Positions 1,094 to 59,980 of a DNA stretch of 64,000 nucleotides are shown one piece after another (position 1 is the stretch's first letter; each line of letters opens with the position of its first letter). Source of the DNA: Thermoanaerobaculia bacterium (GTDB lineage: Bacteria > Acidobacteriota > Thermoanaerobaculia > UBA5066); assembly GCA_963719225.1 (NCBI GenBank), contig CAVRAY010000001.1, positions 3,040,001 to 3,104,000 on the forward strand, in the 5' to 3' direction. The notes beneath the pieces are model-generated. The model ran no database searches and was not told where the DNA came from. It was given only the letters and a program-made list of their open reading frames with translations. The translations under genes and the position numbers were made by a program.

Positions 1094-1408
1094 GTGAAAC
1101 GCGCGGCCCTGCTGATGCTCGTCGTCGGGGCGCCGCTCGTCCTGCTCTTCTTCCCCGAGCTCCGCCGCCGCATCGCACACAAACTGCGGTTCCTGCTACT
1201 CGTGTGGTCGGGGGCGGTGCTCTTCTTCGGGCTGGCCGGCGCGCCGGGGAGAGAGAAGAAGAGTTTCTTAGAAGGTGAATCGGGCGCGTCCATCGCCTGG
1301 TCTCTCTTGGGAGTGGCCCTGTTCGCCGCGGCGTTCGTCTCGGTCCTGCGTGATTTCCGGCTCTCTTCACCTTCTAGGGAATCTTCCGGCGGCGCGAAGC
1401 GCCGCTGA
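1094..1408 (+). CDS. Small membrane protein with three hydrophobic segments
   Basis: GTG start 7 nt after TAACAT; hydrophobic helices; carries a TTCTTAGAA motif pair. Confidence 0.6.
   Translation: MKRAALLMLVVGAPLVLLFFPELRRRIAHKLRFLLLVWSGAVLFFGLAGAPGREKKSFLEGESGASIAWSLLGVALFAAAFVSVLRDFRLSSPSRESSGGAKRR
1250..1386. repeat. Convergent pair of the dispersed TTCTTAGAA motif
   Basis: Forward core 1265-1273; degenerate reverse copy, core about 1372-1380. Confidence 0.75.
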
Positions 1409-1418
1409 TCGGCCTTCG

Positions 1419-3737
1419 CTATTCCAGCGAGACCCAGTCGACGCCGATCCCGAGCGCGCGCGTGTCGTCTCCCTTGCCGGCGTCCTTCGGGACCGTCGTC
1501 GGAGCGTGGAGCCACAGCCGGACCGGTTCGGGACCCGCGAGCGCGCTCAGGACCTCTGCCGTCAGAGGGAGGGACACCTCCGCGAAACCGACGTTCACGC
1601 GAATCGAGCCGGCCGGCACATCCCCGACCGATATCTCGACGTCGACCGGCGCCGCCACCGCGCGGGCCCGCAGGACGAGGCGCGAGGGAGTGAAGCCCGG
1701 CACGGGAGAGAACACGATCGACGCGGTGTCCGTCGTCCAGCGCATCTCGAGCCCCGCGTCCGCGATCTTCTCGCGTGAGAAGAAGCCCTCCGGGTCGAAG
1801 CGGCCGTCGTCGGCCGCGCCCAGCTCCGCCACGAGCCGGGGTCCCTGGTTCGGCCAAAGCGCTTCTGGCGCGTAGGAATACGTCGCTTCGCGAATCGTGA
1901 AACATCCCTTCGCCGGCCGCTTCGCTCCCTCGATCGGGGGCAGGTCCTTCGGGCGGTCGCAGGAGAGGATGTATTCCGTCGGCCCCGGCATCGGCCCGAA
2001 GATCGCGCGGGGCACGATCGCGATGTCGAAGGGCCCCGGCGTTATCCGGCGCTCGAGAAGCAGCCGCCCCGATGCCGCCTCGGTCACGCGCAGCGTCGTC
2101 TCGCCGACGTCTCCGGGCCTTTCACCGGAGAGAACGGCACAGAGCGGGCCCTGATCGGCGGGCACGTACAGGCGCGCGACGGGCCCCGCCCAGCGAAACG
2201 ACGGTGCTCCGGCCACGGTCTCCCGGGCGCCGAAGCCCACGCCGAAGAGCGGCGGCGCGGGGTCGCGCACGGCGACGGACAGAAGCCGCCCGTTTCCGAG
2301 CGCCTCGGCCACGCGTCCGCTCCTCGTGTACGAGCGCCAGCGAGGATCGACCAAAGTTGGAGAGCCCCCTTCGCCCGTGAAGTCCGCGAGACGCACGAGC
2401 CGCTTGTTCATCTGGCGCGGCGCCTTTACGAGCTCTTCGTCCAGATAGCCCCATACGATCAGGCGGTGCTCCCAGCGCTCGGTCCTGAGGAAGGCACTGA
2501 AATCCCCGTCGGCCACGATCGTTTCGCGGCCGGCGTGCACCCAACGCTCGAGATCGCGCAGCGCGGCGATCGGAGGCGTCTCCTCGCGCGCGCTCGCGCG
2601 CACCGCGGGCCACGCTTCCCGCGCGAAGATGAGCCCGGCGAGGCCGGCCGCGCAGAAAGCCACGACACCGCGCCGGAAGAGCGCCTCGAGCCCCGCTCCG
2701 ACCGCGAGGCCGAGAACGAGGACGAACGGCACCGAGTAGCGCGACATCGCGCGGCTGTGGAGGAACCACAGCGAGAGGAATGCGGGAGCGAGAACGAGGA
2801 CGAGATCGAAGGAGCCGCGCCGCTTGCGCATCCCGAGCGCGAAGAGACCCACGGCCGCGACCGCGAGCACGACGAGCGCGCGCCGCCACGTCAGAAAGTC
2901 CCGTACGAGGAAGGAGTCGAGGAGCGAGCCGACGGTGCCCGTCGCGAAGGCGCGCGCCCGGAACCCCGTGCGCTCGGCCAGCGACGCGAAGAGCCCGGGC
3001 GTCCCGCCCGCCTGGGCGAGCAGCCAGACGAACCACGCCGCCGTGCCGGCGAGCGCCGACAACCCGAACGTCCAGGCGGCGTCCGCGCGATCGCGGCGAA
3101 GCATGAGCCGCCCCATGGAGAGAAGGAGGATCGGGAAGAAGACGAGGATGAGATGCGGCCGGACGCCGATCGCCGCGGCCGCGAGAAGCCCGGCGAAGAG
3201 ACCGAGCAGGCGAACCCGCCGCGCGGCGACCAGGTCGCGCCAGCGCGTCTGATTCGGCGAGCGCCTCTCCTCCGCGGTTGCGAGGCACGCGAGAGCGCCG
3301 AGAAAGAGAGCCGTAGAGGGCGTGTCGGAGAACGCGCGGCCCCCGTTCACCCAGACGACCGGCAGCGCAAACGCGAAGACGACGCCGGCGAGAGCGGCCC
3401 AGCCCCCCACGACGCGCCGTCCCCAGACGTACAGCGCGGGAACGCTGCATGCCGCCAGCAGGGTGGACGCCGTCGCGAGCGCGTTGAACGGTGTGACGCA
3501 GAGTGGCAGCAGGGCCCGGCCGATCAGGATCCACACGGGAAAGCCGGGTGCCTGCGGCGAGAGATCGAACAGGTCGAAGCGCGTCACGGCGCCCGCGAAG
3601 ATCGCTTCGTCGATCTCGCCCGGCGAATGCGCGAGCGCGAAGAACCGGGAAGCGGCGACGGCTCCTACGACGAGCGCCGCGAAAGCGAGCGGCGGCTCGC
3701 GGCGCCGGTCGCCTTCCCGCCGGAAGCGCGTCAACAC
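1419..3737 (-). CDS. Polytopic membrane protein, GT-C/ArnT-like glycosyltransferase with C-terminal periplasmic domains
   Basis: N-terminal EIDE loop, PQAPGFP, AFSDTPS, many TM helices, C-terminal DTRALGI motif; start codon uncertain. Confidence 0.6.
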   Translation of the reverse strand: MLTRFRREGDRRREPPLAFAALVVGAVAASRFFALAHSPGEIDEAIFAGAVTRFDLFDLSPQAPGFPVWILIGRALLPLCVTPFNALATASTLLAACSVPALYVWGRRVVGGWAALAGVVFAFALPVVWVNGGRAFSDTPSTALFLGALACLATAEERRSPNQTRWRDLVAARRVRLLGLFAGLLAAAAIGVRPHLILVFFPILLLSMGRLMLRRDRADAAWTFGLSALAGTAAWFVWLLAQAGGTPGLFASLAERTGFRARAFATGTVGSLLDSFLVRDFLTWRRALVVLAVAAVGLFALGMRKRRGSFDLVLVLAPAFLSLWFLHSRAMSRYSVPFVLVLGLAVGAGLEALFRRGVVAFCAAGLAGLIFAREAWPAVRASAREETPPIAALRDLERWVHAGRETIVADGDFSAFLRTERWEHRLIVWGYLDEELVKAPRQMNKRLVRLADFTGEGGSPTLVDPRWRSYTRSGRVAEALGNGRLLSVAVRDPAPPLFGVGFGARETVAGAPSFRWAGPVARLYVPADQGPLCAVLSGERPGDVGETTLRVTEAASGRLLLERRITPGPFDIAIVPRAIFGPMPGPTEYILSCDRPKDLPPIEGAKRPAKGCFTIREATYSYAPEALWPNQGPRLVAELGAADDGRFDPEGFFSREKIADAGLEMRWTTDTASIVFSPVPGFTPSRLVLRARAVAAPVDVEISVGDVPAGSIRVNVGFAEVSLPLTAEVLSALAGPEPVRLWLHAPTTVPKDAGKGDDTRALGIGVDWVSLE

Positions 3738-3813
3738 CGTCCGAGTGTTTCATTTTTCGGGCTGCGCCGAAACAGTTACAATGAAGCTCGATGTCGATTC
3801 GACATCCCGCGGG

Positions 3814-5990: not shown

Positions 5991-7064
5991 TCAGGGCTGC
6001 TTTGGCGCCGAAAGCAGCTTCAGCTCGATGGACACGACGTCGTGCACGGCCCGGCCCGGGCTGCGCGCCGAGATCAGCGAGGGAAAGTCCTTCAGGTCGA
6101 GCTCCGGGCCGTCGGCTGCCAGCACCTCGTCGACCGAGAACGCCGCGGAGTACCCATCGCGTCCCGTGACGACGAGAACGGCGGAGGAAAGAGCGCGGCG
6201 CGCCGCCGCGCCTTCCGTGGGCGTGCCGAGAAAATCGAATACTCTGCGAAGAGGGACGCGCGTCGAGTCGCCACCTCGAATCTCGGCAATGGTGATTTTC
6301 TTAGAAGGGGAAAAGGGGCCGAGCAGATCGATCGCCGGCTGCTTCGATGCCGCGGCGGCGCCCGTGCCCTCTCTACCATTCGCAGAAGATCTCTCTTTCT
6401 CCGCGCGCCTCCCCACGGGGCGCTCGACGAGCCTGTCGTCCGCGGGCGCGTTCATCGATCTCTTCAGGAATCGCATGCCGGCTTCCGCCGTCTTCCAGGT
6501 CTGGCGGCCCTTTTCGTCGAATCCGCGGTCCCATTGCGTGAAGCCGTCCTGCGCCAGGATCAGCACCGTTCTCATCGTCGCCGCGGATTTCACCGTCGAG
6601 GGGCAGTCCGTTCCCGGCATCTCCCCTTCCCAGAGGTCGCCCTTCTTCCGGAGCAGCACGGCGCAACCGGGTCGCTCACGCAGGTCGCTTGCGCCGTAGA
6701 GCGCGAGGGCGGAGGGATCGCGCCACTTCCCGCGCACGAGGATGGGGTCCTTGGGGTCGAAGGCGCGCATGCGCACCGCATCCCCGTCCTCTTCGAGGCG
6801 GTAGAAGCGCTGCTGGGTCGGCTCGTCGAGCCTCGGAGCGGCGGCCAGCTCGCGATAGACGACGAGAGCGCCGTTCGCGATCCGGCTCTTCGGCACCGCC
6901 ACGACGACGACCCGGACGGCTTCCGGCGTGCCTTCGGAACCCTGGTCCTTCAGCTCGAAAGTTCCCGTGAGCCGGGCGGCGACCTCCGCGGCCCGGCCCC
7001 CGTCGGCGACGAGGGGCGCCGCGAGGAGCAGGCCGACGACGGCAGCCGCTCCCGGCGCTTTCAC
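5991..7064 (-). CDS. Secreted CpcT/CpeT-like (bilin lyase fold) protein with an extra C-terminal domain
   Basis: [33 protein letters not shown] resemble CpcT/CpeT; GTG start overlaps the typA stop. Confidence 0.65.
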
Positions 7065-8899
7065 GCCTCTTCCTCCTCCAGGACCGTGCTCCTTTTCTCG
7101 GAGACCCGGCGCATGGAATGGTCGAGGATTCTCTTCCTGAGCCTCACGGACTTCGGCGTCACCTCCACGAGCTCGTCGTCTTCGATCCACTCGATGGCGA
7201 GCTCGAGAGGCATCGGGCGCGGCGGCGTGAGGCGGATCGCGAAATCCGAGCCGGACGAGCGCATGTTCGTGAGGTGCTTCTTGACGCAGGGGTTCACGAC
7301 GAGGTCGTTGGGCCGCGCGCTCTCGCCGCAGATCATGCCGCCGTAGACCTCGATCCCGGGGGGCAGGAACAGCGTCGACCGCTCCTCGAGCCGCTCGAGC
7401 GAATGCGCCGTCGTCTCTCCCGCTTCCTTGCACACGAGCGCGCCGCGACCGCGGCCCGTCACCTCGCCGCGGAAAGGCTCGTAATCGTGGAAGACGTGAT
7501 AGAGCAGACCCTCGCCCTTCGTGTCCGTCAGGAACTCGTTGCGGTACCCGAACAGCCCTCGCGTCGGGATCTTGAACTCGATCTTCACGCGTCCCGAGCC
7601 GTGGTTCGTCATGTTCGTCATCTCGGCCTTGCGCTGGCCCAGCTTCTCGATGACGGTGCCCATCGCGACTTCCGGAACGTCGACGACGAGCTCCTCGATC
7701 GGCTCGCAGGTCTGCCCGTCTATTTCCTTCAGGATGACCTGCGGGCGTGACAGCGCGAACTCGAAGCCTTCGCGCCGCATCATCTCGACGGTGATCGCGA
7801 GGTGCAGCTCGCCGCGCCCCGAGACCCGGAAGGCGTCCGGGCTGTCGGTCTCCTCCACCCGCATCGCGACGTTCGTGCGCAGCTCCTTCTGGAGGCGCTC
7901 GCCGAGGTTGCGGCTCGTGACGTACTTGCCCTCGCGGCCGGCGAACGGCGAGTCGTTCACGCGGAACATCATCGAGACCGTCGGCTCGTCGACCGCGATG
8001 GGAGCGAGTGCGACGGGATTCTCGAGATCGGCCAGCGTTTCGCCGATAGTGACTTCCTCGATGCCGGAGATCACGACGAGGTCGCCGGCGCTCGCCTCTT
8101 CGACCTCGACGCGCCGGAGCCCTTCGAACGCCATGAGCTTCACGATCTTCGCCTTCGCCATGGTGCCGTCCAGCTTGCAGACCGAGACCTGCTGGCCTGG
8201 CACGACGGTTCCGTTCACGATGCGACCGATGAGGAGCCGGCCGAGGTAGTTGTCGTAATCGAGAGAGGCCACGAGGATCTGCAACGGCGCCGAGGCGTCG
8301 CCGCCCGGCTCCGGAACCTCCACGAGAATCGCGTCCAGGAGCGGCCGGACGTCCGTCTCCGTGTGATCCACCTCGCGGCGGGCGAAGCCGTGCTTGGCGG
8401 ACGTGTACACGATCGGGAAGTCGAGCTGCTCGTCGGTGGCGCCGAGATCGACCATGAGATCGAACACCTCGTCGATGACCTGGTGAGGCCGCGCGTCCGG
8501 GCGGTCGATCTTGTTCACGACGACGAGGGGCTTGAGCCCGAGCTCGAAAGCCTTGCGCAGGACGAAGCGCGTCTGGGGCATGGTGCCTTCGGCCGCGTCC
8601 ACGACGAGAAGCACCGCGTCCACCATCTTGAGGACGCGCTCGACCTCCCCCCCGAAGTCGCTGTGGCCCGGCGTGTCCACGATGTTGATCTTCGTGCCGT
8701 GGTAGTGGATGGAGGTGTTCTTCGCGAGGATCGTGATGCCGCGCTCCCGCTCCAGGTCGTTGCTGTCCATGATCCGCTCGGTGCCCGACATCGCCTCGTT
8801 CGCGCGGAACGTCCCCGACTGCTTCAGGAGGCAGTCCACGAGCGTGGTCTTGCCATGATCGACGTGCGCGATGATCGCGATGTTGCGGAGTCCGGACAT
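7061..8899 (-). CDS. typA: Translational GTPase TypA/BipA
   Basis: [50 protein letters not shown]. Confidence 0.97.
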
Positions 8900-14447: not shown

Positions 14448-15368
14448 TCAATCCCGGGTCTTCACGACGATCTCGGTCGGCTGCCCGGCGACGTAACGAA
14501 GCGAACATTCGGCGAAGCCTTCACATTTCACGCAGATTCCGTCACGGTCACCCTTGAAATCGATGGGCTTGCAGATGTTCACGCCGGGGACGACGAGCTT
14601 TCCGAGCTCGGCCGCGAACTCGCGCTGGCGCGGCGGCGGGTCGCCGCCTCCCTGAGTCGCCCGACGGAGGTCCTCGACCTTCGAGAACAGCTCGCGGTTG
14701 CGCCGCTCGAGCACCGCGTCCTCGCGCAGCGAGCCGGCCGATTTCACGGCGACGACCGCGGACTGCGCCGCCTTCTTCACCCGATACCGGCCATGGTGAC
14801 GGATCCAGAAAAAGAGGAAGCCCGCGCCGGCGCCGGCGACGGTGACGAAACCTGAGCCCGGCCGCCCCGCGAGCGTCGCCTTCAGAAGCTCCCATCCCAG
14901 GAAGGCCACGGCCAGCCACGCGAGCCACTTCACCTTCACGGGGATCACGAACATGATCAGGAACTGCATGTCGGGGAAGAGGTACGCGTAGGCGAAGAGC
15001 ATCGAGGCGCCCGCCACGACGCCCCCCGAGGTGAGGACGTTCCCCGTGGCGAGCGCGGCGAGAGACGCTCCGAAGGTCGAGATGAGCCAGAAGACCGTGA
15101 ACTCGCCGGTTCCCCACTCGCCCTCCAGCGCGGATCCCAGGATGTAGAGGATGAGCGCGCCGAAGAAGAGGCCGAAAGGCTCGCCGTGGAGGAACTGGTA
15201 CGTCACGAACGTCCACGGCCTCGCGAGAGCGGCCCTCGGATCGAACGCGAAGAGCCCGTACGTCTGCTCGGGGTTCATCTTCAGGAGGAAGAAGAAGATG
15301 AAGTGAAAGCTGCACAGCGGCAGCGTGAGGCCGAGCCTCGGCGCGAAGAGGTCGTTGCGATCGCTCAT
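14448..15368 (-). CDS. Rhomboid-like intramembrane protein with a Cys-rich C-terminus
   Basis: PWTFVTYQFLH, GSALEGEWG, FPDMQFLIMFVIPVKVKWLAW; ATG overlaps the mutL stop. Confidence 0.7.
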   Translation of the reverse strand: MSDRNDLFAPRLGLTLPLCSFHFIFFFLLKMNPEQTYGLFAFDPRAALARPWTFVTYQFLHGEPFGLFFGALILYILGSALEGEWGTGEFTVFWLISTFGASLAALATGNVLTSGGVVAGASMLFAYAYLFPDMQFLIMFVIPVKVKWLAWLAVAFLGWELLKATLAGRPGSGFVTVAGAGAGFLFFWIRHHGRYRVKKAAQSAVVAVKSAGSLREDAVLERRNRELFSKVEDLRRATQGGGDPPPRQREFAAELGKLVVPGVNICKPIDFKGDRDGICVKCEGFAECSLRYVAGQPTEIVVKTRD

Positions 15369-17257
15369 CCCCGCCGCCCGAAACGTCTCTCGAGCTCCTC
15401 GTGCGCGAAAGCGAGGAGGATGGGCCGGCCGTGCGGGCACGTCCACGGGTCGCGGCAAACGGCGAGGTCCGCGAGGAGCCGTGCGGCCTCGGCCGGCGCG
15501 AGCCGGTGGTTCACCGTGATCGCGCCGCGGCAGGCGAGGGACGCGGCGAGGACTTCGCGCCGCAGCGCGGGCGACGATACTGCGCCCTCGGGCAGCGCCG
15601 CGAGGCGCGCAAGGGTGTCGCGGAGGGCGGGAACGACCGAGGACGCCGGCGTCTCGGGAGGCGTCGCCGAGACGAGGAACGTGCGGTTCGAGAGCTCGGA
15701 GACGACGAAGCCGGCTTCCGCGAGGAAATCGTCCGAGCTCGACAGGAGCGTCGCCTCGTGCGGCGTCGCCTCGAACGTCATCGGCGTCAGGAGATTCTGG
15801 GAATGGACGTCCGAGGTCTCCAGTCTCTCGAGGAATCTCTCGTATCGCACGCGCTCGTGCGCGACGTGCTGGTCGATGAGCACCAGACCTTCCTCTCCTT
15901 CGGCCACGAGGAACGAGTCGCGGTACTGGCCGAGGAGGCGGATGAGGCCGAGCGGGGAGGGAGAAAGAGGAGAAGAGATTTCTTGTGAATATGGGGAAAG
16001 AGAAGAAAGAGAAGAGGAGATTTCTTCTGAATAGGAAGAGGGGGAAGGGCCGGGCGCGATCGCGTCGAGCAGCGCCTGCGTGTCGGCACGGTCCCGCCCC
16101 GCGCCCCAGCCGCCCGCGCCGTAGCGAGCCGTCCCCTCGCCGACCTCAGACGCGCCCCGCCAGCCTATTCCCCCTTCTAAGAAGTCTCTCTCTCCTCTTT
16201 CTCTATCGCCTTCTCTTCTTCCTCCGATGCCCTCGAACGCCTCCCCCTCCACCGACACCGCGCGTTTCCCGCCCGTCAGCGCCTGAACGAGGCCGCGGTG
16301 GACGAGCGCGTGCACGGTGCCCGAGTCGCGGAACCGGACCTCGAGCTTCTGCGGGTGAACGTTCACGTCGCAGAGCTCCGGGGCGCAGGCGAGAAACAGC
16401 GCGAAGCCCGCATGGCGATCCGAGCGCAGCACCTCGCGCGTCGCGAGGCCGACCGCGTGCGCCACGGTCGCGTCCCGTATGGCGCGGCCGTTCACGAAGA
16501 ACCATTGGTGCGCCCGCGACGGGAACGTCGTGTCCGGCCGCGTGACGGCGCCCGTGAGCGTCATCCCGTTGAAGGCGAAGTCCACCTCGCGCGGGGGCGC
16601 GGGCGAGGCGAGGCCGAGGACTTCGCGAAACCGCGACGCGATTCCGGCCGCGGGAGGCAGATCGAGGAGGAGCCGGCTTCCCGCGCCGAGCGCGAAGGAC
16701 ACGTCCGGCCGCGACAGCGCGAGCGTCGTGACGGCCTTCACGACCGCCCGGAGCTCGGCGTCGGCGCTCTTCAGGAACTTGCGCCGCGCCGGGACGTTGC
16801 CGAAGAGGTCCTCGACGACGACGCGCGTACCTCTCGGGTGCCGTGCGGGCGAGACTTGCACGGGCGCGCCCCGTTCGGCGACGACCTCGGTCCCGAGGCC
16901 GGAGTCGTCCGGCGACGTCGTGAGGACGAGGCGCGAGACGGAAGCGATCGAGGGAAGGGCCTCTCCTCGAAAGCCCATGGTGCCGATCGAGGTCAGATCC
17001 TGGAACGTGCGGATCTTCGAAGTCGCATGCCGCTCGAGGGCGAGCCGCGCGTCCCCGGCGGACATGCCGGAGCCGTCGTCCAGGACCTCGATCCGCGTGA
17101 TCCCCCCGCCTTCGACGTCCACGCGGACGCGCCGCGCTCCGGCATCGAGCGCGTTCTCCACGAGCTCCTTGACAGCGGACGCCGGACGCTCCACGACCTC
17201 GCCCGCGGCGATCTGGTCGACGAGCGTGTCGGGAAGAACGCGAACGGGTCCGCCCAC
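15365..17257 (-). CDS. mutL: DNA mismatch repair endonuclease MutL
   Basis: QIAAGEVVERPASAVKELVENALDAGA, GFRGEAL, DQHVAHERVRYE, ACR, CPHGRP. Confidence 0.96.
   Translation of the reverse strand: MGGPVRVLPDTLVDQIAAGEVVERPASAVKELVENALDAGARRVRVDVEGGGITRIEVLDDGSGMSAGDARLALERHATSKIRTFQDLTSIGTMGFRGEALPSIASVSRLVLTTSPDDSGLGTEVVAERGAPVQVSPARHPRGTRVVVEDLFGNVPARRKFLKSADAELRAVVKAVTTLALSRPDVSFALGAGSRLLLDLPPAAGIASRFREVLGLASPAPPREVDFAFNGMTLTGAVTRPDTTFPSRAHQWFFVNGRAIRDATVAHAVGLATREVLRSDRHAGFALFLACAPELCDVNVHPQKLEVRFRDSGTVHALVHRGLVQALTGGKRAVSVEGEAFEGIGGRREGDRERGERDFLEGGIGWRGASEVGEGTARYGAGGWGAGRDRADTQALLDAIAPGPSPSSYSEEISSSLSSLSPYSQEISSPLSPSPLGLIRLLGQYRDSFLVAEGEEGLVLIDQHVAHERVRYERFLERLETSDVHSQNLLTPMTFEATPHEATLLSSSDDFLAEAGFVVSELSNRTFLVSATPPETPASSVVPALRDTLARLAALPEGAVSSPALRREVLAASLACRGAITVNHRLAPAEAARLLADLAVCRDPWTCPHGRPILLAFAHEELERRFGRRG
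15961..16222. repeat. Cluster of dispersed purine-tract/TTCTTAGAA motifs in the mutL linker
   Basis: Two truncated forward copies GAGATTTCTT(G/C)TGAATA; reverse core 16175-16183. Confidence 0.8.
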
Positions 17258-17292
17258 GCCGGGGATGTTATCGGCTTCGGGGCAGGTCGCGT

Positions 17293-18687
17293 TCAGCGCT
17301 CCGCCATCGCCTTCTCCACGTCCGCGATCTCCCGCGGAGCCGAGCACGAGAGGCACTCCGGCCCTGTTTCGGTGACGAGGATGTCGTCTTCGATCCGAAC
17401 GCCGATGTTCCACCACTTCGGGTCGACGCCCTCGCTCTTCTCGCGGACGTAGATGCCAGGCTCCACGGTGAGGACCATTCCGGGACGTAGCGTCGCGTTC
17501 GCCGAGAAGTAGCGCGTCCAGCGGTCCGTCGGATCCCCACTCTCGTAGCTCCCCGCGTCGTGGACGTCGAGGCCGAGCCAGTGCGACGTGCCGTGCGGAA
17601 AGAACGCGATGAACGAACGTGACCGTTTCACCTCTTCAAGCGTGCCCTTGAGGAGACCGAGCTTCACGAGCCCGTCCACGATGACCTCGTACGAGGCGTC
17701 GTGGACGTCGTGGTACTTCGCTCCGGGCACCGCCTTCGCGATACCTGCCTTCTGCGCCGCGAGGACGATCGCGTAGAGAGAGCGCTGCTCGGGAGAGAAC
17801 GTGCCGTTCACGGGATAACTGCGGGTCACGTCCGCGGCGTAGAGCCCGTACTCGCACGCCGTGTCGTTGACGATCATCTCGCCGGCGAGCATCGTGCGGC
17901 TCGCGTCGGCGTAATGGAGGACGACCGAGTTCGCGCCCGACCCCACGATCGGCGCGTAGGCCATGCGCGCGGAGCCTCCCGCGAGGCAGCGCTCGACCAT
18001 GGCGGCCTTGAGGGCGCCCTCGTTCACGCCGGGGCGCGTGCGCGCCATCGCGGCGAGGTGCGCCTCGCCCGAGAGCCTTGCCGCTTCGCGCATGATCGCG
18101 ATCTCCGTCGCGTCCTTCACGAGGCGCATCTGCCCGAGGAGCGGCGTGACGTCGAGCGCCGGAAGCGGCTCGGTGCCGGTCTCCACGAGCGTCTGCCAGG
18201 TGGAGACGATCTTCTCGCGGAACTCCCTGTCGTGCGCATCGGCGTAATAGAGAGCCTTCGCCCCCGCGAGAAGCGCCCGGGATTCCTTCTGGAAGTCGGC
18301 GACCGGGCGGGCAGCGTCCGCCCGAAACTCCTTCGCGCCTTCGACGCCCGCGCGGCGTCCCGTCCACTGCTCCTCCGCCCAGTTCTTCGGCATGAGGAAG
18401 AGCGTGTAGCGTTTTCCCTCAGCCGCGCCCGGCCGGAAGACCGCGACCGCATCCGGCTCGGAAAAGCCCGTGAGATACCAGAAATTCGAATCCGGCCGGT
18501 AGGCATCGAGGTGATTGCCGGCGTGCTCCGCCGGGGCACGCAGCACCACGACCGCGTCCTTCGGAAGCTTTGCTGCGAGGGCCGTGCGGTGCGCGGCGAA
18601 CCAGTCCGGACCGGGCGCGGGCGGCCCGGCCACGGCGAGCGCGGACGAGCAAACGGCAAGAACGACGAGAAACGTCGGGACGCGCAT
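17293..18687 (-). CDS. pepP: Xaa-Pro aminopeptidase (aminopeptidase P family) with a signal peptide
   Basis: YRPDSNFWYLTGF, YAADVTRSYP, HWLGLDVHD, TVEPGIY, GVRIEDD. Confidence 0.85.
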   Translation of the reverse strand: MRVPTFLVVLAVCSSALAVAGPPAPGPDWFAAHRTALAAKLPKDAVVVLRAPAEHAGNHLDAYRPDSNFWYLTGFSEPDAVAVFRPGAAEGKRYTLFLMPKNWAEEQWTGRRAGVEGAKEFRADAARPVADFQKESRALLAGAKALYYADAHDREFREKIVSTWQTLVETGTEPLPALDVTPLLGQMRLVKDATEIAIMREAARLSGEAHLAAMARTRPGVNEGALKAAMVERCLAGGSARMAYAPIVGSGANSVVLHYADASRTMLAGEMIVNDTACEYGLYAADVTRSYPVNGTFSPEQRSLYAIVLAAQKAGIAKAVPGAKYHDVHDASYEVIVDGLVKLGLLKGTLEEVKRSRSFIAFFPHGTSHWLGLDVHDAGSYESGDPTDRWTRYFSANATLRPGMVLTVEPGIYVREKSEGVDPKWWNIGVRIEDDILVTETGPECLSCSAPREIADVEKAMAER

Positions 18688-20433: not shown

Positions 20434-21789
20434 TCAGAGGCTGCGATGCCGGAACGGACGGGCGTCTTTCCCGCTGTACGTCTCCACGACCTGGCCGCTG
20501 CCCCTCAGGAGGTACTTGTACGTCACGAGCCCGTCGAGGCCCACGGGGCCGCGGGCATGAATCCGGCTCGTCGAGATGCCGACTTCCGCTCCGAAGCCGT
20601 AGCGGAAGCCGTCGGCGAAACGCGTGGAGGCGTTGTGGAAGACGCCGGCCGCGTCGACACGAGAGAGAAACGCCTCGGCGGCGGCCGCGTCGGCCGTGAC
20701 GATGGCCTCCGTGTGGTGCGAGCCGTATCCGTTCACGTGCTCCACGGCCTCGTCTAGCGACTCCACGAGCTTGACGGACAGGGTCGGCCCGCCGTACTCC
20801 GAGCGCCAGTCGTCCTCGGAGGCTGAAGCGAGATCGAGAGCGGAGGCGAGAGCCCGCGTCTTCGCGCACGCGCGGATCTCGATCCCTGCCTGAACGAGCC
20901 GAGTCAGCAAGGGGACGAGGAAACGCTCCGCCGCGTCCCGGTGGACGAGGAGAGTTTCGGCCGCATTGCACGCCGCCGGGTACTGGAGCTTGCTGTCGAG
21001 GACGATCGCCTGCGCCATCGCTTCGTCCGCCGCGCGATCCACGTAGACGTGGCAGACCCCTTCCGCATGGCCGAGAACCGGGATGCGCGTATGCGCCTGG
21101 ACGTGCCGGACGAGATCGTATCCGCCGCGCGGGATGACGAGGTCGATGTGCTCGTCGAGCGCGAGGAGCGCGTCGACCTCGGCGCGCCCGGCCACGGACG
21201 TGAGCGCGCCGTCCGGGATGTCGGGGAAGGACGCGAGGGCCATCGTGAAGACGTCGAGGATTGCCGCCGTGGACCGAACGGACTCGCGTCCGCCCTTGAG
21301 GATCGCCGCGTTGCCCGACTTGAGCGCCAGCGACCCGATCTGCGCCACCGCGTCGGGACGCGACTCGAAGATCACCAGGAGGACGCCCAGCGGACACGTC
21401 ACCTTCTCCAGGACGAGGCCGTCGTCGAGGAGCGTTCTGGAAAGGACGCGCCCGGAGGGGTCCGAGAGCGCGGCGACGGCACGGACGCCGGCGGCCATTC
21501 CGTACACCTTGGTCTCGTCGAGCTTCAGGCGTTCGAGGGCCGAGGGCGCGAGAGGATTTTCTTTGAAGGTGGTGCGGGCGGCGTCCATGTCCTCGGCGTT
21601 TGCGCTCAGGATGGCTCCGCTGAATCGCTCCAACCCGTCCGCCACCTTTCGAAGAAAATCATTCTTTTCGTCCGCCGGCACGGCAGCCAGCTTTCTCGCC
21701 GCCTCTCGGGCTCGCGTCGCGATTCCGACCGGTCCCATATTCCCTTCTAAGAAATCTCTCTCTTCCTCTTTCTCTCCCTCTTTCGTCAT
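20434..21789 (-). CDS. proA: Glutamate-5-semialdehyde dehydrogenase
   Basis: FESRPD, KSGNAAILKGG, PAACNAAET, NASTRFADG, GISTSRIHARGPVGL. Confidence 0.95.
   Translation of the reverse strand: MTKEGEKEEERDFLEGNMGPVGIATRAREAARKLAAVPADEKNDFLRKVADGLERFSGAILSANAEDMDAARTTFKENPLAPSALERLKLDETKVYGMAAGVRAVAALSDPSGRVLSRTLLDDGLVLEKVTCPLGVLLVIFESRPDAVAQIGSLALKSGNAAILKGGRESVRSTAAILDVFTMALASFPDIPDGALTSVAGRAEVDALLALDEHIDLVIPRGGYDLVRHVQAHTRIPVLGHAEGVCHVYVDRAADEAMAQAIVLDSKLQYPAACNAAETLLVHRDAAERFLVPLLTRLVQAGIEIRACAKTRALASALDLASASEDDWRSEYGGPTLSVKLVESLDEAVEHVNGYGSHHTEAIVTADAAAAEAFLSRVDAAGVFHNASTRFADGFRYGFGAEVGISTSRIHARGPVGLDGLVTYKYLLRGSGQVVETYSGKDARPFRHRSL
21550..21785. repeat. Cluster of dispersed motifs in the 5' part of proA
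   Basis: Forward core 21559; reverse cores 21648 and 21745. Confidence 0.75.
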
Positions 21790-25894: not shown

Positions 25895-25957
25895 AGAGAA
25901 GAAGATTTTCTTAGAAGGTGAATGCGGGCCGTGGCTCGTGCGCGCGGAGACCACCCG

Positions 25958-27277
25958 ATGAACGGCGCCTTCGACACCATCGAAGAAATCCCTCTCTCCG
26001 TCCCCTCTGCCCCTGCCGAGCCGATGGCGCCGAAACGGCTCCCCTGGGGCGCCCGGCTCGGCATCGTCTGGGAGGTCGTCGTCGGAGGATTCGTCGAGCT
26101 CTGGGCCCACAAGCTGCGCTCGCTCCTCACGCTCACGCTCCTCATGCTCGGCGTCTTCGCCCTCGTCGTCATGACGTCCGTGCTGGACGGCGTCATGGAC
26201 AAGGTCGCGATCGGGTTCTCGGGGATGAGCTGGGACGGCACCGTTGTCATTCAGCCCAAGCCGCCCGAGACGACCGAGGAGCAAAAGCGCTTCGCGATGA
26301 GTCCCGGTCTGCGCTACGAAGATCTCGTTCGCGTCACGGCGCCGCACGAGCGCGTCGTCGCGTTCCTTCCTCGCGCGACGAAGTCGACCCGGGTCCGCAC
26401 GGCCGGGGGCCCCGAGCGCATCTGGGTCACGGGACTCACGCCCGACTACGCCCTCCTCATGAACCGGCCGATCGCGTCGGGCCGGGGCCTCACGGACGAC
26501 GACCGCAAGAGACGCAGCACGGTCGCGGTCGTCGGCTCGACGCTCGGCGTGAAGCTCTTCGGTGGCGCCGATCCCGTCGGGCGCGACGTCCTCGTGGACG
26601 GGATCCCGTTCCGGATCGTCGGGCTGCAGGCGCCGCTCCAAATCTTCAACGAAGAGCTCTGGCTCGACTCGAACGGGCTCATGATCCCCCTCGAGACGTA
26701 CATGGACCGCATGGACGCGGACCACAAGCTCACGAGCGTCGCCGTGAAGCTCCGCAAGCGCTCGGACCTCGACGAGGTCTCGGCGCTCGTCCTCGGCCGC
26801 GCGAAACAGGCGCACCACGGGATTCAGGACGTCGAGATCAAGGACCTCGAGTCGGAGGCCGCGCGCTCGTGGTCGGGGTTCCTCGACCAGATGTTCGGCT
26901 GGCGCGTCGTCCTCTCGAGCCTCGCGGCGACCGTCCTTCTCGTGGGCGGCGTGGGCGTCCTCTCCGTGATGCTCATCTCGTTCTCGGACCGCCGGTACGA
27001 GATCGGCCTGCGCAAGTCGCTCGGTGCCTCGGATCACGAAATCTTCGTTCAGTTCCTCCTCGAGGCGTGCGTCCTCGCGGCCCTCGGCGCGCTTGCCGGG
27101 ACCGTCAGCGGCGCGGTCCTCTGCCAGGCGCTCTCTTCGAAATTCCCGTACGGCCTCGTCGTCAACCCGATGGGCCTCGCCCTGGCATGGGCCGTGGCGC
27201 TCGGTCTCGCGCTCGTCTTCGGCCTCTATCCCGCCATCCGCGCCTCGCGCCTTTCGCCGATGGAGGCGATGCGGTAG
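25958..27277 (+). CDS. MacB/FtsX-type ABC permease (second copy)
   Basis: HKLRSLLTL, DRRYEIGLRKSLGA, PAIRASRLSPMEAMR. Confidence 0.9.
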   Translation: MNGAFDTIEEIPLSVPSAPAEPMAPKRLPWGARLGIVWEVVVGGFVELWAHKLRSLLTLTLLMLGVFALVVMTSVLDGVMDKVAIGFSGMSWDGTVVIQPKPPETTEEQKRFAMSPGLRYEDLVRVTAPHERVVAFLPRATKSTRVRTAGGPERIWVTGLTPDYALLMNRPIASGRGLTDDDRKRRSTVAVVGSTLGVKLFGGADPVGRDVLVDGIPFRIVGLQAPLQIFNEELWLDSNGLMIPLETYMDRMDADHKLTSVAVKLRKRSDLDEVSALVLGRAKQAHHGIQDVEIKDLESEAARSWSGFLDQMFGWRVVLSSLAATVLLVGGVGVLSVMLISFSDRRYEIGLRKSLGASDHEIFVQFLLEACVLAALGALAGTVSGAVLCQALSSKFPYGLVVNPMGLALAWAVALGLALVFGLYPAIRASRLSPMEAMR

Positions 27278-27293
27278 GTCCTAAGATCCGCGA

Positions 27294-28262: not shown

Positions 28263-28265
28263 CGC

Positions 28266-30936: not shown

Positions 30937-30949
30937 GCGGTGAATCTTG

Positions 30950-31876: not shown

Positions 31877-31950
31877 TACGTCGACAGCAGTGCTGCTACG
31901 AACCGAGCTTCCTCCAGCCCTATTCACCTTCTAAGAAATACTCTCTTCGA
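31716..31950. repeat. Cluster of dispersed motifs with a long GA tract
   Basis: Forward core 31766; reverse cores 31846 and 31929. Confidence 0.8.
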
Positions 31951-31971
31951 ACGATCCACTGAGCGAGAAGC

Positions 31972-34794: not shown

Positions 34795-34824
34795 TTGACC
34801 CTTGCCGAAAAGCGGGCGTAGCAT
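34795..34824 (+). promoter_or_regulatory. Putative sigma70 promoter (TTGACC-N18-TAGCAT) for the sigma/TPR operon
   Basis: Near-consensus hexamers upstream of the ATG at 34852. Confidence 0.45.
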
Positions 34825-34851
34825 ATAGGGGCTCTTCTCAGAAGGGGAAAG

Positions 34852-35340
34852 ATGTCCCGGAACTTCGACGAGATCGTGTCCGACGAGGTACTGAAGCAGC
34901 GCTCCCGTTTTGCGCCTGCCGAGGTTCCTGTCCCGGCGCGGCCCGTGTGGAACTGGGAAGAGCTGAACGCGAAGTTCCGCCCCCGCCTCATTGCCGCCGG
35001 CGTCATCCGTTTCGGCCTCTCGCAGGATGACTGCGAGGGCGCGGCGCAGACCGTCTTTCTCAAGGTGCTCGCGATGAATCCGCGCGTGCGCGACCCGAAG
35101 GCGTACCTGCGCGCGGCGTTCCTGAACCAGTGCAACAACATCCTGCAGGCGCGCGAGAGGCGCGGCGTCGGGGATTCCGACTCGGGGGTCGTGTTGCGCG
35201 AGCTCAGGCTCGCGGAATCGGGAGAGATCGAGCTTCGGGCCGAGACCGCGCCCGTTTCCGACCGGACCGGCCCGATGCCGGCGGTCCGGCGCACGCTGTG
35301 GGATCGCATTCGCGCCGGACTGGCGACGGTGACGCCGTGA
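34852..35340 (+). CDS. ECF-like sigma factor with region 2 present and region 4 apparently deleted or degenerate
   Basis: [13 protein letters not shown]...[15 protein letters not shown] is region 2; no recognisable region 4 HTH. Confidence 0.65.
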
Positions 35341-43318: not shown

Positions 43319-45265
43319 GTGGCGATCGAGACGCTCCGGACCGTCTGCAACCGGGACTGCCCCGACGCGTGCGGGCTCATCGCGACGGTCGAGGACGGGA
43401 AGCTCGTCCAGCTGGGCGGGGACCCGGCACATCCCGTCACGCAGGGCTTCATCTGCTATCGCACTTCGAAGTTCCCCGAGCTCCAGAATTCGAACGAGCG
43501 CCTCACGGCGCCGCTCATGCGGCGCGGCAAGGACTTCGTCGAGGTGTCGTGGGAAGAAGCGCTCGGCTCGATCGCCGACCGCCTGCTCGCGATCCGGAAG
43601 GAATCGGGTCCAGCCGCCATCCTCCACTACCGCTCCGGGGGATCGCTGGGGCTCGTGAAGTCCGTCGTGGATTACTTCTGGGAGCTGTTCGGTCCGGTCA
43701 CCGTCAAGCGCGGCGACATCTGCTCCGGCGGAGGCGACGCCGCGCAGACGACCGACTTCGGCGAAGAGGAGTCGCACGACCTCTTCGACATCCTGAATTC
43801 GAAGAACATCCTCCTCTGGGGTAAGAACCCGAACGTCTCGAACATCCACATCCTGCCGTTGCTCCAGAAGGCGAAGAAGGCCGGGGCGCGGATCCTCCTC
43901 ATCGATCCCGTCCGGCACAAGGCCGAGAAGATCGCCGACCGGACGATTCTCGTTCGCCCCGGAGGCGACTTCGACCTCGCGATGGGAGCTGCCGCGCTCC
44001 TCTTCGCGCGCGGGCAAACGGATGGGGACGCACCTTTTTATTGCGACGACTTCGAGAAGTTCCGGGCGCTCGCCCTTTCCCGCACTCCGGAAAAGTGGGC
44101 GCGCGCCGCCGACGTGAGCCTCGAGGACGTCTCCGCGGTCGCCTCGGCGCTCGCGGAGAAGCCCTGCTCGATCCAGGTGGGCTGGGGCATGGGCCGCAGG
44201 ATGAACGGCTCGGGCATCGTCCGGGCGCTCGACGCGCTCTCGGGAGTCAGCGGGAACATCGGCATCCCCGGCGGCGGCGTGTCGTTCTATTTCAAGAGGC
44301 GCGGCGCTTTCGACACGACGTTCCTAAAGAAGAACCCGCCCCGCACGATCTCCGAGCCGCTCCTCGGCCCGGGAATCCTCGAGGCGAAGGATCCGCCCGT
44401 CCGCGCGGTCTGGGTCACCGCGGGAAATCCCGTCGCGATGCTGCCCGATTCGGGCGCCGTTGCCCGCGCCCTCGAGACGCGCGAGCTCGTCGTCGTCGTG
44501 GATCCGTTCCTGACGGACACGGGCCGCCGCGCGCATTTCGTCCTGCCCACGACGACTCTCGTGGAGGACGACGACCTCCTCGGCGCCTACGGCCACCACT
44601 GGCTCGGGGCCTCGACTCCCGCGCTCGCGCCGCCGCAAGGCGTCTTGTCCGACCTGGAGATCGTCCAGGCTCTCGCGAAAATCATCGACGAGAGGACCGG
44701 GAAAAGAGAAGAAAAGATTTCTGAGAAGGTAAGAGGGACAGCCCGGGAATGGAAGGAGCGTCTGCTCGCGCGAGTCGCGCCGCTCGGCCTCACGGCGGCG
44801 AGACTCGAGCGCGAGTCCGTTCGCAACCCCTTCGTGGAAAAGGTTCTCTTCTCAGATCGCAAGTTCCCGACCGCGTCCGGCAGGATGAAACTCGTCCACG
44901 AGTTGCCCCCCGCCCCGCCCGAGGAGCCCGGCTTCCCCCTCTGGCTGTTCTCAAACTCCACCGAGAAATCGCAGAGCTCCACGTGGGCCGGCGGCCCGCC
45001 CGACCTTCTGACGGCGACCTGCCACCCGGCCGCGGCGAACGGCTTCGCCGACGGCGACGTCGTTTTTCTCGAGAGCGCCCTCGGACGGCTCCGCGTCCAG
45101 GTGAAGCTGGACGCGGGCCAGCGCCCCGACGTCGTGATCGTGCCGAAGGGCGGCCACTACGACAACGGCACCTCGGCGAACGCGCTCATCAGGGCGCGAA
45201 CGACGGACGCGGGAGAAGGCGCGGCTTATCAGGACTGCCGCGTGCGGCTCGTGCCGGGCGCCTGA
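43319..45265 (+). CDS. Molybdopterin-dependent oxidoreductase
   Basis: CNRDCPDAC...GFIC Fe-S motif, GNPVAMLPD, DPFLTDTG, C-terminal molybdopterin dinucleotide-binding domain. Confidence 0.88.
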   Translation: MAIETLRTVCNRDCPDACGLIATVEDGKLVQLGGDPAHPVTQGFICYRTSKFPELQNSNERLTAPLMRRGKDFVEVSWEEALGSIADRLLAIRKESGPAAILHYRSGGSLGLVKSVVDYFWELFGPVTVKRGDICSGGGDAAQTTDFGEEESHDLFDILNSKNILLWGKNPNVSNIHILPLLQKAKKAGARILLIDPVRHKAEKIADRTILVRPGGDFDLAMGAAALLFARGQTDGDAPFYCDDFEKFRALALSRTPEKWARAADVSLEDVSAVASALAEKPCSIQVGWGMGRRMNGSGIVRALDALSGVSGNIGIPGGGVSFYFKRRGAFDTTFLKKNPPRTISEPLLGPGILEAKDPPVRAVWVTAGNPVAMLPDSGAVARALETRELVVVVDPFLTDTGRRAHFVLPTTTLVEDDDLLGAYGHHWLGASTPALAPPQGVLSDLEIVQALAKIIDERTGKREEKISEKVRGTAREWKERLLARVAPLGLTAARLERESVRNPFVEKVLFSDRKFPTASGRMKLVHELPPAPPEEPGFPLWLFSNSTEKSQSSTWAGGPPDLLTATCHPAAANGFADGDVVFLESALGRLRVQVKLDAGQRPDVVIVPKGGHYDNGTSANALIRARTTDAGEGAAYQDCRVRLVPGA

Positions 45266-46908: not shown

Positions 46909-47324
46909 TCGTCTATCTCGATACGAGCACCCTGGTCAAGCTCTACGTCGAGGAGGAGGGCTCGCGCATGGTTCGAGACCTCGTGGAGCCCGCCGAGCTC
47001 GTGGCGACGTCGGTTGTCACGTACGTCGAGGCCCGGACTGCCCTCGCCCGCCAGCGACGCGAAGGTGGGCTGACAGCCGCAGGTTTCGGACAGGCGAAAA
47101 ACGACTTCGAGATGGACTGGCCCAGGTATCTGGCCGTCGAAGTCAACGAGGCGGTTTGTCGACGTGCCGGGGACCTGGCCGAAAAGCATCATCTTCGAGG
47201 CTTCGACAGTCTTCACCTCGCCTCGTACCTTTCCCTCTACGGCGAGGGCGTGCGACAGATCCGCTTTTCGTCGTTCGATGAGGCGCTCAACCGCGCCGCT
47301 CGGAAGGAAGCGAAGGCACGGTAG
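46905..47324 (+). CDS. vapC: PIN-domain toxin VapC
   Basis: YLDTSTLVKLYVEE, LRGFDSLHLAS, SSFD. Confidence 0.9.
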   Translation: MIVYLDTSTLVKLYVEEEGSRMVRDLVEPAELVATSVVTYVEARTALARQRREGGLTAAGFGQAKNDFEMDWPRYLAVEVNEAVCRRAGDLAEKHHLRGFDSLHLASYLSLYGEGVRQIRFSSFDEALNRAARKEAKAR

Positions 47325-58607: not shown

Positions 58608-59060
58608 TCAGCCGCGCCTCGCCGGGGGAGGCGGAACGGGGGACTTGGGCTTCGAAGCGCCGGCGAGCCGCGTGAAGGCGAGCTGAAGCTCGCCGAGCAG
58701 CCCGTCGAGCGCATCGGACTCCTCGAAAGAAAGCCGCGCGCGCGTCTTCTCGCGAAGCGCGAGGAGCGAATCGACGATCTGCCTCGCCCCCGCGAGATCC
58801 GGCTGCCGTCGTCCCGTCGCGGGGTCGGGAAAACCTTCCATGTAGAGGGCCGCCGTCTGCGCCAGCATGTCGAGCAGGCGAAGGAACGCCGGGCTCGTCA
58901 CCGGAGCCGCCTCGGCGGGCGATGGTGTCGGCGGGGCGGGCGCCGGCTCGGGGACCGGGTCGGGCGCCGCGAGCTCCGCTTGCGCTTCCGCGCGCACTTC
59001 ACCGTCGGCCGTGAAAAGGCGGCGATCCACGACCTTGATCGGTTTCTCGGATTCGGACAT
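58608..59060 (-). CDS. DUF1844 domain protein
   Basis: KVVDRRLF, ARQIVDSLLALREKT, ELQLAF. Confidence 0.8.
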   Translation of the reverse strand: MSESEKPIKVVDRRLFTADGEVRAEAQAELAAPDPVPEPAPAPPTPSPAEAAPVTSPAFLRLLDMLAQTAALYMEGFPDPATGRRQPDLAGARQIVDSLLALREKTRARLSFEESDALDGLLGELQLAFTRLAGASKPKSPVPPPPARRG

Positions 59061-59110
59061 AAATCCCCTCGGGTCAGCGTATTTTACGTAAACGCCGGGA
59101 GGTTGCGCGC

Positions 59111-59920
59111 ATGGAAGATTCGGATGCCGCCGGGGCTCTCGTCGCGCTCATGGAAAGGCTCCGAAACGAGTGTCCGTGGGACCGGAAACAGACTCCCCGC
59201 GACCTCGCCGGCTATCTTCTCGAGGAGTGCTACGAAGTCCTCGAGGCTCTTGCCCGCGAGGACTGGCGCGAGCTGGAAGGCGAGCTGGGCGATCTCCTCT
59301 TCCAGATCGTCTTTCTCGCCAAGCTCGGCGAGGAGCGCGGCGCTTTCGACTTCTCGAGCGTCGCCCGTCGCATCCACGACAAGATGGTCGCCCGCCACCC
59401 GCACGTCTTCGGCGAGGCGGCGGTGCGGGACGCCGAAGGTGTCCGCGTGCAATGGGAGGAGCTCAAGCGCAGGGAGCGCGAGAAGGAAGGCCGCCCGCCC
59501 TCTCCGTTCGACGGAGTCCCGCGCGCCCTTCCCGCGCTCCTGAAGGCGGTACGCCTGACGTCGCGCGCCGCCGATCTCGGTTTCGACTGGGAGCGCGACG
59601 CGGACGTCCTCGTCAAGCTCGACGAGGAGGTCGCGGAGTTCAAGGCGGAGCTGCTGGCGCCCGGCGGAAAACGAAAAGAGCGCGTGGCGGCCGAGATCGG
59701 CGACCTCCTCTTCACCGTCGTGAACGTCGCCCGGCGCCACGGCGTCGATCCCGAAGCCGCGCTCCAGGGCACGAACGACAAGTTCCGGCGCCGCTTCGAG
59801 GAAGTGGCGCGGCGGGCGAAGGCGGTCGGGAAAGAGGTCAAGACGACTCCCCTCGCGGACCTCGACGCGCTGTGGAATGCGGTCAAGATCGAGGAAAGAG
59901 AGAAAGAGAAAGATTCTTAG
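59111..59920 (+). CDS. mazG: Nucleoside triphosphate pyrophosphohydrolase
   Basis: CPWDRKQT, EECYEV, ELGDLLFQ, RHPHVF, EIGDLLF, KFRRRF. Confidence 0.93.
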   Translation: MEDSDAAGALVALMERLRNECPWDRKQTPRDLAGYLLEECYEVLEALAREDWRELEGELGDLLFQIVFLAKLGEERGAFDFSSVARRIHDKMVARHPHVFGEAAVRDAEGVRVQWEELKRREREKEGRPPSPFDGVPRALPALLKAVRLTSRAADLGFDWERDADVLVKLDEEVAEFKAELLAPGGKRKERVAAEIGDLLFTVVNVARRHGVDPEAALQGTNDKFRRRFEEVARRAKAVGKEVKTTPLADLDALWNAVKIEEREKEKDS

Positions 59921-59980
59921 AAAGGAAGAGGGACAACGCGCCGCAGGGCGTCCTGCCCTATTCACCTTCTAAGAAAAAAC
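59891..59980. repeat. Convergent motif pair at the 3' end of mazG
   Basis: Forward core 59914-59922 includes the mazG TAG stop; reverse core 59967-59975. Confidence 0.8.

Follow-up and report, generated by a model that had tools for sequence, protein, structure and literature searches.

Short repeats dispersed through bacterial genomes have been described in several forms. Copies of the Rickettsia palindromic elements (RPEs) follow a consensus over their full length and are known only as insertions. REPINs, doublets of repetitive extragenic palindromic sequences, are extragenic and depend on the transposase RAYT. Uptake sequences are single sites with a fairly even spread. The sites matS (read by MatP), NBS (read by Noc) and parS are single short palindromes, present in tens per genome, and the reader of each is known. 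Here we describe a repeat found in a 64-kb stretch of an acidobacterial chromosome (G000:C1:3040001-3104000, hereafter the window). It appears to be a genus-specific paired-box element, in which two boxes of about 30 bp face inward over 30-300 bp of unrelated DNA. The element is nearest to RPEs, REPINs and MITEs (miniature inverted-repeat transposable elements) in its origin and layout, and to uptake sequences in the overprinting of codons. At least one defining property of each of these types is missing from it.

Like the RPEs, the element is a short palindromic repeat that lies between genes and in frame within conserved genes, in tolerant loops, with no known transposase of its own. Unlike in RPEs, only the ends of about 30 bp are alike, the interiors are unrelated and some boxes lie on pre-existing conserved codons. 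REPINs likewise are inverted doublets of a short repeat with a variable spacer, in hundreds per genome, vertically persistent and lineage-specific. However, 142 of the 224 pairs studied here lie in genes, no Y1 transposase was found in the source genome G000, the box is no hairpin by itself, and its consensus contains no GTAG or CGTC tag. The uptake signal sequences (USS) of Pasteurellaceae and the DNA uptake sequences (DUS) of Neisseriaceae are also lineage-specific, with a core of about 10 bp and weaker flanks, and overprint codons at constant protein length; oriented pairs, whole-unit insertion and a density gradient from dif to the origin set the present element apart. Bacterial MITEs such as Correia elements share with it the terminal inverted repeats, units of about 100-250 bp, presence or absence of units and occasional in-frame insertion, whereas here there is no shared interior, no autonomous partner was found in G000 and boxes appear de novo in conserved domains. 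Finally, as with matS, NBS and parS, the sites are tolerated in genes, conserved across species and distributed along the origin-terminus axis. In contrast to these, there are about 740 asymmetric paired boxes, the distribution is graded rather than bounded, and a ParB paralogue encoded beside dif does not track the motif.

We tentatively favor, at somewhat less than an even chance, the reading that the element is an ancient mobile paired-box unit, the boxes of which have been kept, and partly newly made, as putative protein-read DNA sites in the terminus-proximal half of the chromosome. The unit likely entered as a small non-autonomous mobile element, and the boxes are now likely kept as DNA sites, each read individually by a putative sequence-specific protein. 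Such a protein might sit head to head on the boxes, in the manner of a transposase or recombinase on terminal inverted repeats. The host may use or tolerate the sites preferentially in the terminus-proximal half, for example in organizing or processing that half. A preliminary description of the window had proposed a DNA-level signal such as paired binding sites. A DNA-level signal is supported, with paired binding sites still the best reading; rigid looping is not supported. That description lacked three points reported here: the insertion of whole units, the restriction to one genus and the density along the origin-terminus axis.

The paired box and its distribution

The source genome G000 comprises 4.75 Mb with 68% G+C in two contigs, C1 and C2. 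The box is an AT-rich segment of about 30 bp, a purine tract followed by TTTCTTnGAAGGTGAA. Downstream of the purine tract the consensus is aTTTCTTnGAAGGTGAAtAGGG, with the invariant core TTCTTnGAAnG. Base 6 of this core is unconstrained (A in 70% of copies), and thus the apparent palindrome is not used symmetrically. With up to three mismatches allowed, the 15-mer TTCTTAGAAGGTGAA matched the window 13 times, whereas 100 shuffles gave an expectation of 0.36 and never more than 3. The whole genome has 273 occurrences of TTCTTAGAA and, with up to two mismatches, 266 of the 15-mer. A weight matrix of 33 columns, applied at a score of at least 14 and with matches merged, found 740 copies in G000. 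As a control the reversed sequence was scanned. It gave 140 matches against 752 raw matches in the real sequence at this threshold, and 44 against 568 at score 20. The window holds 21 matrix copies. The motif is present at the positions first proposed. The claimed forward boxes near 15980 and 16022 are sub-threshold variants recognized by eye, while their reverse partner at 16179 is above threshold.

Neighboring copies up to 400 bp apart were classified by orientation over the whole genome. Forward-then-reverse neighbors numbered 224, reverse-then-forward 13, and the two tandem classes (++ and --) 31 each, which bears out the arrangement seen in the window. An inverted partner was found within 300 bp on the GGTGAA side for 77% of 417 strong copies, and on the other (purine) side for 2.4%. 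The observation of paired boxes is confirmed and lies far beyond chance. The spacing within pairs has a median of 101.5 bp (interquartile range 79-141). The range of 50-190 bp originally given holds for 198 of the 224 pairs, and 103 have a spacing of 70-112 bp. No periodicity of about 10.5 bp was detected in the spacing, as no period reached the family-wise threshold. Rigid looping is therefore not supported. When the 224 interiors were compared all against all by BLAST they proved mutually unrelated, except for paralogous kinases, one duplicate and a few short patches.

The inward-facing arrangement, the variable spacing and the lack of helical phasing are also what invertible segments look like, in which a site-specific recombinase would flip the DNA between the inverted boxes. 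However, the interiors hold indispensable motifs that are read in the sense direction, such as RFWPGPLT and SPGTKYTHYAP of Sua5 and the alphaC region of protein kinases. The orientation was identical in all orthologues examined, and the free central base is identical between partners in only 53 of the 142 genic pairs. We consider inversion extremely unlikely.

The position of the boxes relative to genes was analyzed with crude gene calls that cover 90% of the genome. As had been claimed, copies occur in unrelated genes on either strand and in several reading frames: 524 of the 740 lie within called genes, on both strands and evenly along the gene length, and the box is also found between genes. 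Both arms lie in one called gene in 142 of the 224 pairs, and 64 pairs are intergenic. The genic location was verified by homology for the Sua5, MutL and kinase pairs. The intergenic pairs divide into 48 tandem, 9 divergent and 7 convergent spacers; convergent spacers make up 441 of 2869 in the genome background. The split resembles the background and reveals no terminator-like preference.

The motif is genus-specific, its carriers being uncultured soil Acidobacteriota of the class Thermoanaerobaculia. With up to one mismatch a 16-mer occurred 40-212 times in each of the 24 other genomes of the genus, and once, in a single genome, among 16 genomes of the order's other genera. Counts of an exact 12-mer were 45-138 in all 12 genus genomes scanned, G000 among them, and 16 in G178, which represents a sister genus. 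In the class's 188 other genomes the count was 0-4, and the unpublished genomes G025 and G030 are among those with zero. Presence in all 24 other genus genomes rules out an assembly artefact. No over-represented AT-rich 9-mer was detected in small samples of G027 (80 kb), G029 (100 kb), G026 (25 kb) and G030 (12 kb). In viral contigs a 21-mer gave no match. The 16-mer matched 120 viral loci, all with at most 46% G+C and with a single matrix match each except L139, which has a second one on the outer side. Given the low G+C content and mostly single matches, these are chance matches. Eighteen sequencing runs matched, all as Logan contigs with small shares and none listed as RNA, and four of them yielded fragments of relatives with 90-95% likeness. 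A titles-level literature search found no published description of such an inverted repeat in Thermoanaerobaculia, of a palindromic in-frame element or MITE of this kind in Acidobacteriota, or of the 11-mer.

Whole-unit insertion and overprinting of conserved codons

Pairs have arisen in two modes, the first being insertion of whole units. The unit at 25912/25983 consists of a purine tract, a box, an interior of about 55 bp, a second box and a pyrimidine tract. It is present in the window, in L021 and L026 and in the closest relative G003, and is missing as a block from 10 of 12 other aligned orthologous loci; L017 and L019 carry unrelated sequence at this locus. The unit is also absent from G044 and G001. 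Next, 45 intragenic pairs were sampled and 30 of them put through Pfam. Net insertions at the box pairs were found in RNB (+40 amino acids) and DUF2400 (+37 amino acids), and box pairs split the DNA_ligase_aden and AMP-binding_C domains. Some copies thus have the in-frame insertion known from RPEs. The presence and absence typical of MITEs is seen in the 25912/25983 unit, in the spacers flanking dif and in these net insertions. Many other sampled intragenic pairs lie in linkers or extensions, as in L30, L29, UvrD, AlaRS and Wzt. The two ribosomal proteins (G000:C1:2,691,021-2,695,429) have low-complexity extensions of about 100 amino acids with box pairs, at the N-terminus of L30 and the C-terminus of L29. 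One duplicated unit was detected, at C1:947481 and C1:1963213, the copies being about 88% alike over about 110 bp including the interior, with unrelated flanks. In a check for target-site duplications the units ended in low-complexity purine and pyrimidine tracts, and the flanks of empty sites were highly diverged. Since many pairs are whole-unit insertions, the element is likely of mobile origin. The DNA between partners had been described as ordinary coding sequence, which is true of some pairs; others are inserted units that encode a low-complexity peptide.

The second mode is the overprinting of conserved codons. The four boxes in the Sua5/TsaC gene cause no insertion or deletion relative to 10 distant homologues, archaeal ones included, and lie on shared alignment columns. 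In 13 paralogous Ser/Thr kinase genes a box pair is found at subdomains II-IV, where the boxes encode FLEGEE and YSFEEIP and flank the alphaC region. A tandem array of at least nine Ser/Thr kinase paralogues, about 2.6-2.9 kb each, occupies G000:C1:2,295,900-2,319,700, and each gene has its box pair at an identical spacing of 93 bp. In the Pfam analysis no real length change was found at box pairs in Peptidase_M61_N (+3), SSF (+7), Histidinol_dh (+7) and Acyl_transf_1 (+1 amino acid). The Sua5 orthologue L022, from outside the motif-bearing group (65% identity, no matrix matches), has similar residues encoded by GC-rich codons. Boxes in conserved domains would have arisen by selection or by a biased conversion that favors the box sequence.

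The boxes were said to force rare codons on their genes, and this is seen in Sua5. Identical rare codons occur at identical positions across 16-17 orthologues, and in 16 orthologues the G+C content at third codon positions is 0.50 in box codons versus 0.86 elsewhere. In a 6-kb alignment of 15 genomes the four Sua5 boxes are among the top conserved 15-mers (0.97, 0.94, 0.91 and 0.85). In some relatives a new forward box has been gained in the Sua5 linker. At 59918/59971 three relatives keep the boxes around an interior of different sequence and length. At 44723 the flanking box bases are unchanged, while the free central base gives a different residue (E, S or L). Retention of this box despite the residue change, together with the use of several frames and of intergenic positions, agrees with a DNA-level signal as originally proposed. 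If the boxes are read by a protein, they are a rare case of a non-coding signal of about 30 bp imposed on codons of conserved enzymes (Sua5/TsaC, kinases, HisD), and would constrain protein sequence and codon choice throughout the genus.

The main rival to protein-read sites, which we consider possible but less probable, is a purely selfish non-autonomous transposon family of the MITE or RPE type, with the boxes as terminal inverted repeats and no host function. The likeness of the boxes would then stem from concerted evolution or transposase-linked conversion, and the terminus bias from weaker purifying selection or target preference. Units that are present or absent as wholes, the duplicated unit and the in-frame insertions in loops and linkers speak for it, as do the variation in copy number among species, the decay in G003 and a gradient common to genic and intergenic copies, all described below. 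However, transposition cannot produce boxes on conserved codons without insertion. A selfish family also has to account for orthologous boxes kept around randomized interiors, and for 224 interiors that are unrelated except for paralogues and one duplicate. Even a purely selfish element would display a way of persisting that preserves the ends, leaves the interiors free and makes further ends on the spot. To our knowledge, the models for MITEs, REPINs and RPEs do not cover such a mode.

Proposed recognition of the boxes, and their gradient along the chromosome

Either strand of a pair reads a 5' purine arm and then a 3' pyrimidine arm, and the arms could form a long-range stem through which mRNA stability, termination or translation would be controlled. 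In addition, the forward arm looks like a Shine-Dalgarno sequence, and the reverse arm is similar to the 3' tail of 16S rRNA. Folding is strong in some pairs (z -4.36 for Sua5 pair 2, -2.19 for the mazG pair), but the other two window pairs analyzed fold no better than shuffles (z -0.28 and -1.59). Covariation between the arms was not observed: arm-arm identity was 20.28 of 41 versus 19.93 ± 0.19 for shuffled partners, and the covariation term for Sua5 pair 1 was 0.1 in 16 orthologues. In sense transcripts of the 142 genic pairs, 539 G:U and 533 A:C combinations were counted, and about 40% of positions pair outside the core of about 11 bp. The interiors are barely structured (z -0.36 and -0.46 versus -0.02). 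Rfam gave no match at gathering score in the window and none at E<=1 in 25800-32100. The intergenic pairs likewise do not favor convergent gene ends (7 of 64, see above). We regard a function at the RNA level as quite unlikely. Because there is no partner covariation, no helical phasing and no sense-strand G:U bias, recognition of each box as DNA rather than as a hairpin is favored.

We then placed the boxes on the chromosome axis. Near 0.33 Mb on C2, where the cumulative GC skew has its minimum, are the genes dnaA and mnmE, the rsmG-parA-parB cluster and the sole perfect parS. The GC-skew maximum is on C1 near 2.05-2.1 Mb. A dif-like site, CCGATAATATTTATTATGTTAAAT, is found at C1:2,037,573-2,037,596, between a fused lptF-lptG gene (765 amino acids) and a second parA-parB operon. 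Six genus genomes and two other genera share the arrangement lptFG - dif - parB2. GC skew, together with the location of dnaA and parS (C2) and of dif (C1), suggests that the two contigs are parts of one chromosome of about 4.75 Mb, rather than a chromosome and a megaplasmid.

Box density follows this axis, and the gradient from dif to the origin is a new finding of this work. Up to 1 Mb from dif there are 57-75 boxes per 250 kb, except for the 500-750 kb bins (41 and 46, one per replichore). The values are 39-41 at 1-1.25 Mb, 19-27 at 1.25-2 Mb and 4-15 near the origin. This drop is about four- to five-fold, symmetric across the replichores, and genic and intergenic copies follow the same gradient. 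A two-level fit gave 23.4 boxes per 100 kb at 0.84-3.08 Mb versus 9.6 outside, and the window lies at the right edge of the dense zone. The ribosomal-protein cluster with L29 and L30, near C1:2.69 Mb, is in the terminus-proximal half. In the 3.67-Mb contig of G044 the forward 11-mer was counted per 200 kb. It occurs 3-4 times at 0-600 kb, mostly 7-12 times at 1.0-2.6 Mb, with 4 in the bin at 1.8-2.0 Mb, and at most about 3.4 times beyond 2.6 Mb, a value derived from the 18 remaining forward matches. The pattern resembles that of G000: dif and parB2 are at 1.72 Mb, inside the central high zone, and the region syntenic to the window is at 2.50-2.56 Mb. G019 has 46 exact matches, few for a density profile. 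The spacers beside dif contain pairs or single boxes in six of six genus genomes, and none in the motif-free G086 and G134. Young DNA was considered as a cause of the low-density half: a 20-kb piece from the right low-density side matched five relatives over only about 4.4 kb, and a left piece matched over 12-17 kb, about as the window did. The dif-centered gradient ties an interspersed repeat to the replication axis and offers a testable handle on terminus handling in this uncultured acidobacterial lineage.

A fuller version of the protein-read interpretation would hold that about 350 head-to-head pairs, born by mobility, written by selection and peaking at dif, serve a dedicated protein that organizes, compacts or disentangles the terminus half alongside the second ParAB. 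We judge this version unlikely. ParB2, which is encoded beside dif in the region G000:C1:2,037,573-2,039,524 (locus L117:3573-5524), was present in 29 of 29 genus genomes, including a broken copy in G007.

Several results weigh against boxes kept as protein-read sites. The searches of the genome identified no reader protein, ParB2 being the sole candidate tried. ParB2 was rejected, as it is present in five of five genomes of the family's other genera, motif-free ones included, with a near-identical helix-turn-helix; it therefore does not track the motif. Synonymous-codon identity between orthologues is not higher in the boxes (0.644) than elsewhere (0.649), so that the argument for constraint depends on rare AT-ending codons having persisted and on the 15-mer ranking. 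The closest relative G003 (about 88% DNA identity) has 11 matches versus 21 in the window, and its boxes at shared sites are weaker. Across the species of the genus, copy number spans about a five-fold range (16-mer counts of 40 to 212). Variation and decay of this kind are as compatible with a selfish or driven element as with a function for the host. Weaker selection or biased insertion close to the terminus, instead of a function, could explain the dif-centered gradient. The mobile origin is affected too: only one duplicated unit was seen among the 224 pairs, and mobility is thus old or rare. RAYT (Y1 transposase, PF01797) had no match in G000, while 6 of 14 reference genomes were positive as a control. 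In a search of G000 for an autonomous element, 23 long-range +/- intervals of 0.4-4.3 kb proved to be ordinary gene runs with nothing shared. The lack in G000 of a RAYT and of a transposase-encoding element with these ends also counts against a purely selfish family. An IS5/IS1182-like element (DDE_Tnp_1 and DUF772; G000:C1:2,033,790-2,035,125) with inverted ends of about 21 bp and a CTAG flank lies about 2.5 kb from dif. As a mobilizer it was dismissed, its ends being unrelated to the boxes.

Uptake sequences had been named as a comparison in the preliminary description, and the overprinting of codons without insertions or deletions, in tolerant frames, agrees with it. A signal of the USS/DUS type would spread by molecular drive through biased uptake and recombination. 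Restriction to one genus, conservation at orthologous sites and the presence of ComEC in 27 of 29 genus genomes are consistent with this. ComEC is widespread, however, and its presence discriminates little. The near-obligatory, oriented pairing at 50-300 bp, the insertion and duplication of whole units, the four- to five-fold gradient between dif and the origin and a density of about one per 6 kb are not expected of uptake signals, and we hold this explanation to be very unlikely. ComEC (PF03772) had no match in G024 (99% complete, second-lowest box count) and G011 (74% complete). G004, with the lowest box count, has ComEC, and no pattern between ComEC and box counts is claimed.

Box sites in the window

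The sites of the window are given here in order, each box by the position of its center with strand and matrix score in brackets; all have scores of at least 14 unless noted. The pair 1253..1392 (1269+, 40.5; 1376-, 28.4) is within a 104-amino-acid open reading frame (ORF) without a Pfam family at 1094..1408 (+). The pair 6286..6399 (6302+, 40.9; weak 6383-, 15.0) lies in the C-terminal part of a CpeT/DUF1001-like ORF (5991..7433 -) and is conserved in G003. In the interdomain linker of MutL (15365..17416 -), the group 15954..16195 comprises the two variant forward boxes in tandem, at about 15980 and 16022, and the reverse box 16179- (31.4). The extra forward copy is a 24-bp duplication that is not found in G003 or G044. 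A triplet at 21547..21765 (21563+, 25.0; 21652-, 16.9; 21749-, 35.6) falls in the first approximately 80 codons of an aldehyde-dehydrogenase-family gene (20434..21789 -), with box 21749 directly following the called start. The inserted unit described above, 25896..25999 (25912+, 44.3; 25983-, 22.0), is intergenic and flanked by two MacB-like permease genes.

The Sua5/TsaC gene contains two pairs. Pair 1 at 27502..27619 (27518+, 20.2; 27603-, 16.7) encodes DRKMLRKV and LSKKSS in its boxes, which flank the conserved RFWPGPLT motif. Pair 2 at 27880..28020 (27896+, 20.0; 28004-, 42.1) encodes SEEFLRK and LFLRKSSLLS and flanks the length-variable interdomain linker and the SPGTKYTHYAP motif. In the spacer from an esterase-like gene to a pyruvate phosphate dikinase gene there is a triplet at 31754..31949 (31770+, 31.3; 31850-, 21.2; 31933-, 45.9), the forward box of which is preceded by a long purine tract. 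A solo forward box at 34823..34855 (34839+, 22.2) lies immediately 5' of an ATG at 34852 and, judged by this position, would occupy the expected ribosome-binding site. The pair 44707..44850 (44723+, 29.9) lies between the Molybdopterin and Molydop_binding domains of the gene 43319..45265 (+). Its reverse partner near 44831 is below threshold and degenerate, as some partners had been said to be. The region around 44723 is of equal length in four relatives. The last pair, 59902..59987 (59918+, 27.4; 59971-, 36.8), covers the stop codon of mazG (59111..59920 +) and the spacer ahead of a convergent gene.

Forward boxes end just 5' of gene starts at 21745-21789, 25908-25925 and 34835-34855 of the window, and could there act as a source of Shine-Dalgarno sequences (AGAAGG/GGTGA). 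For annotation, the boxes explain AT-rich patches, clusters of rare codons, poly-Ser and poly-Glu/Lys inserts and some start-site signals. The window also contains a YoeB-like toxin gene (19064-19360) and a PIN-domain gene (46905-47324), which likely belong to toxin-antitoxin modules unrelated to the motif. An IstB/DnaC-like ATPase gene at 51175-51900, the source of a weak second Bac_DnaA match, adjoins a sigma-70 gene, a MerR-family gene and a partial Hsp70 match.

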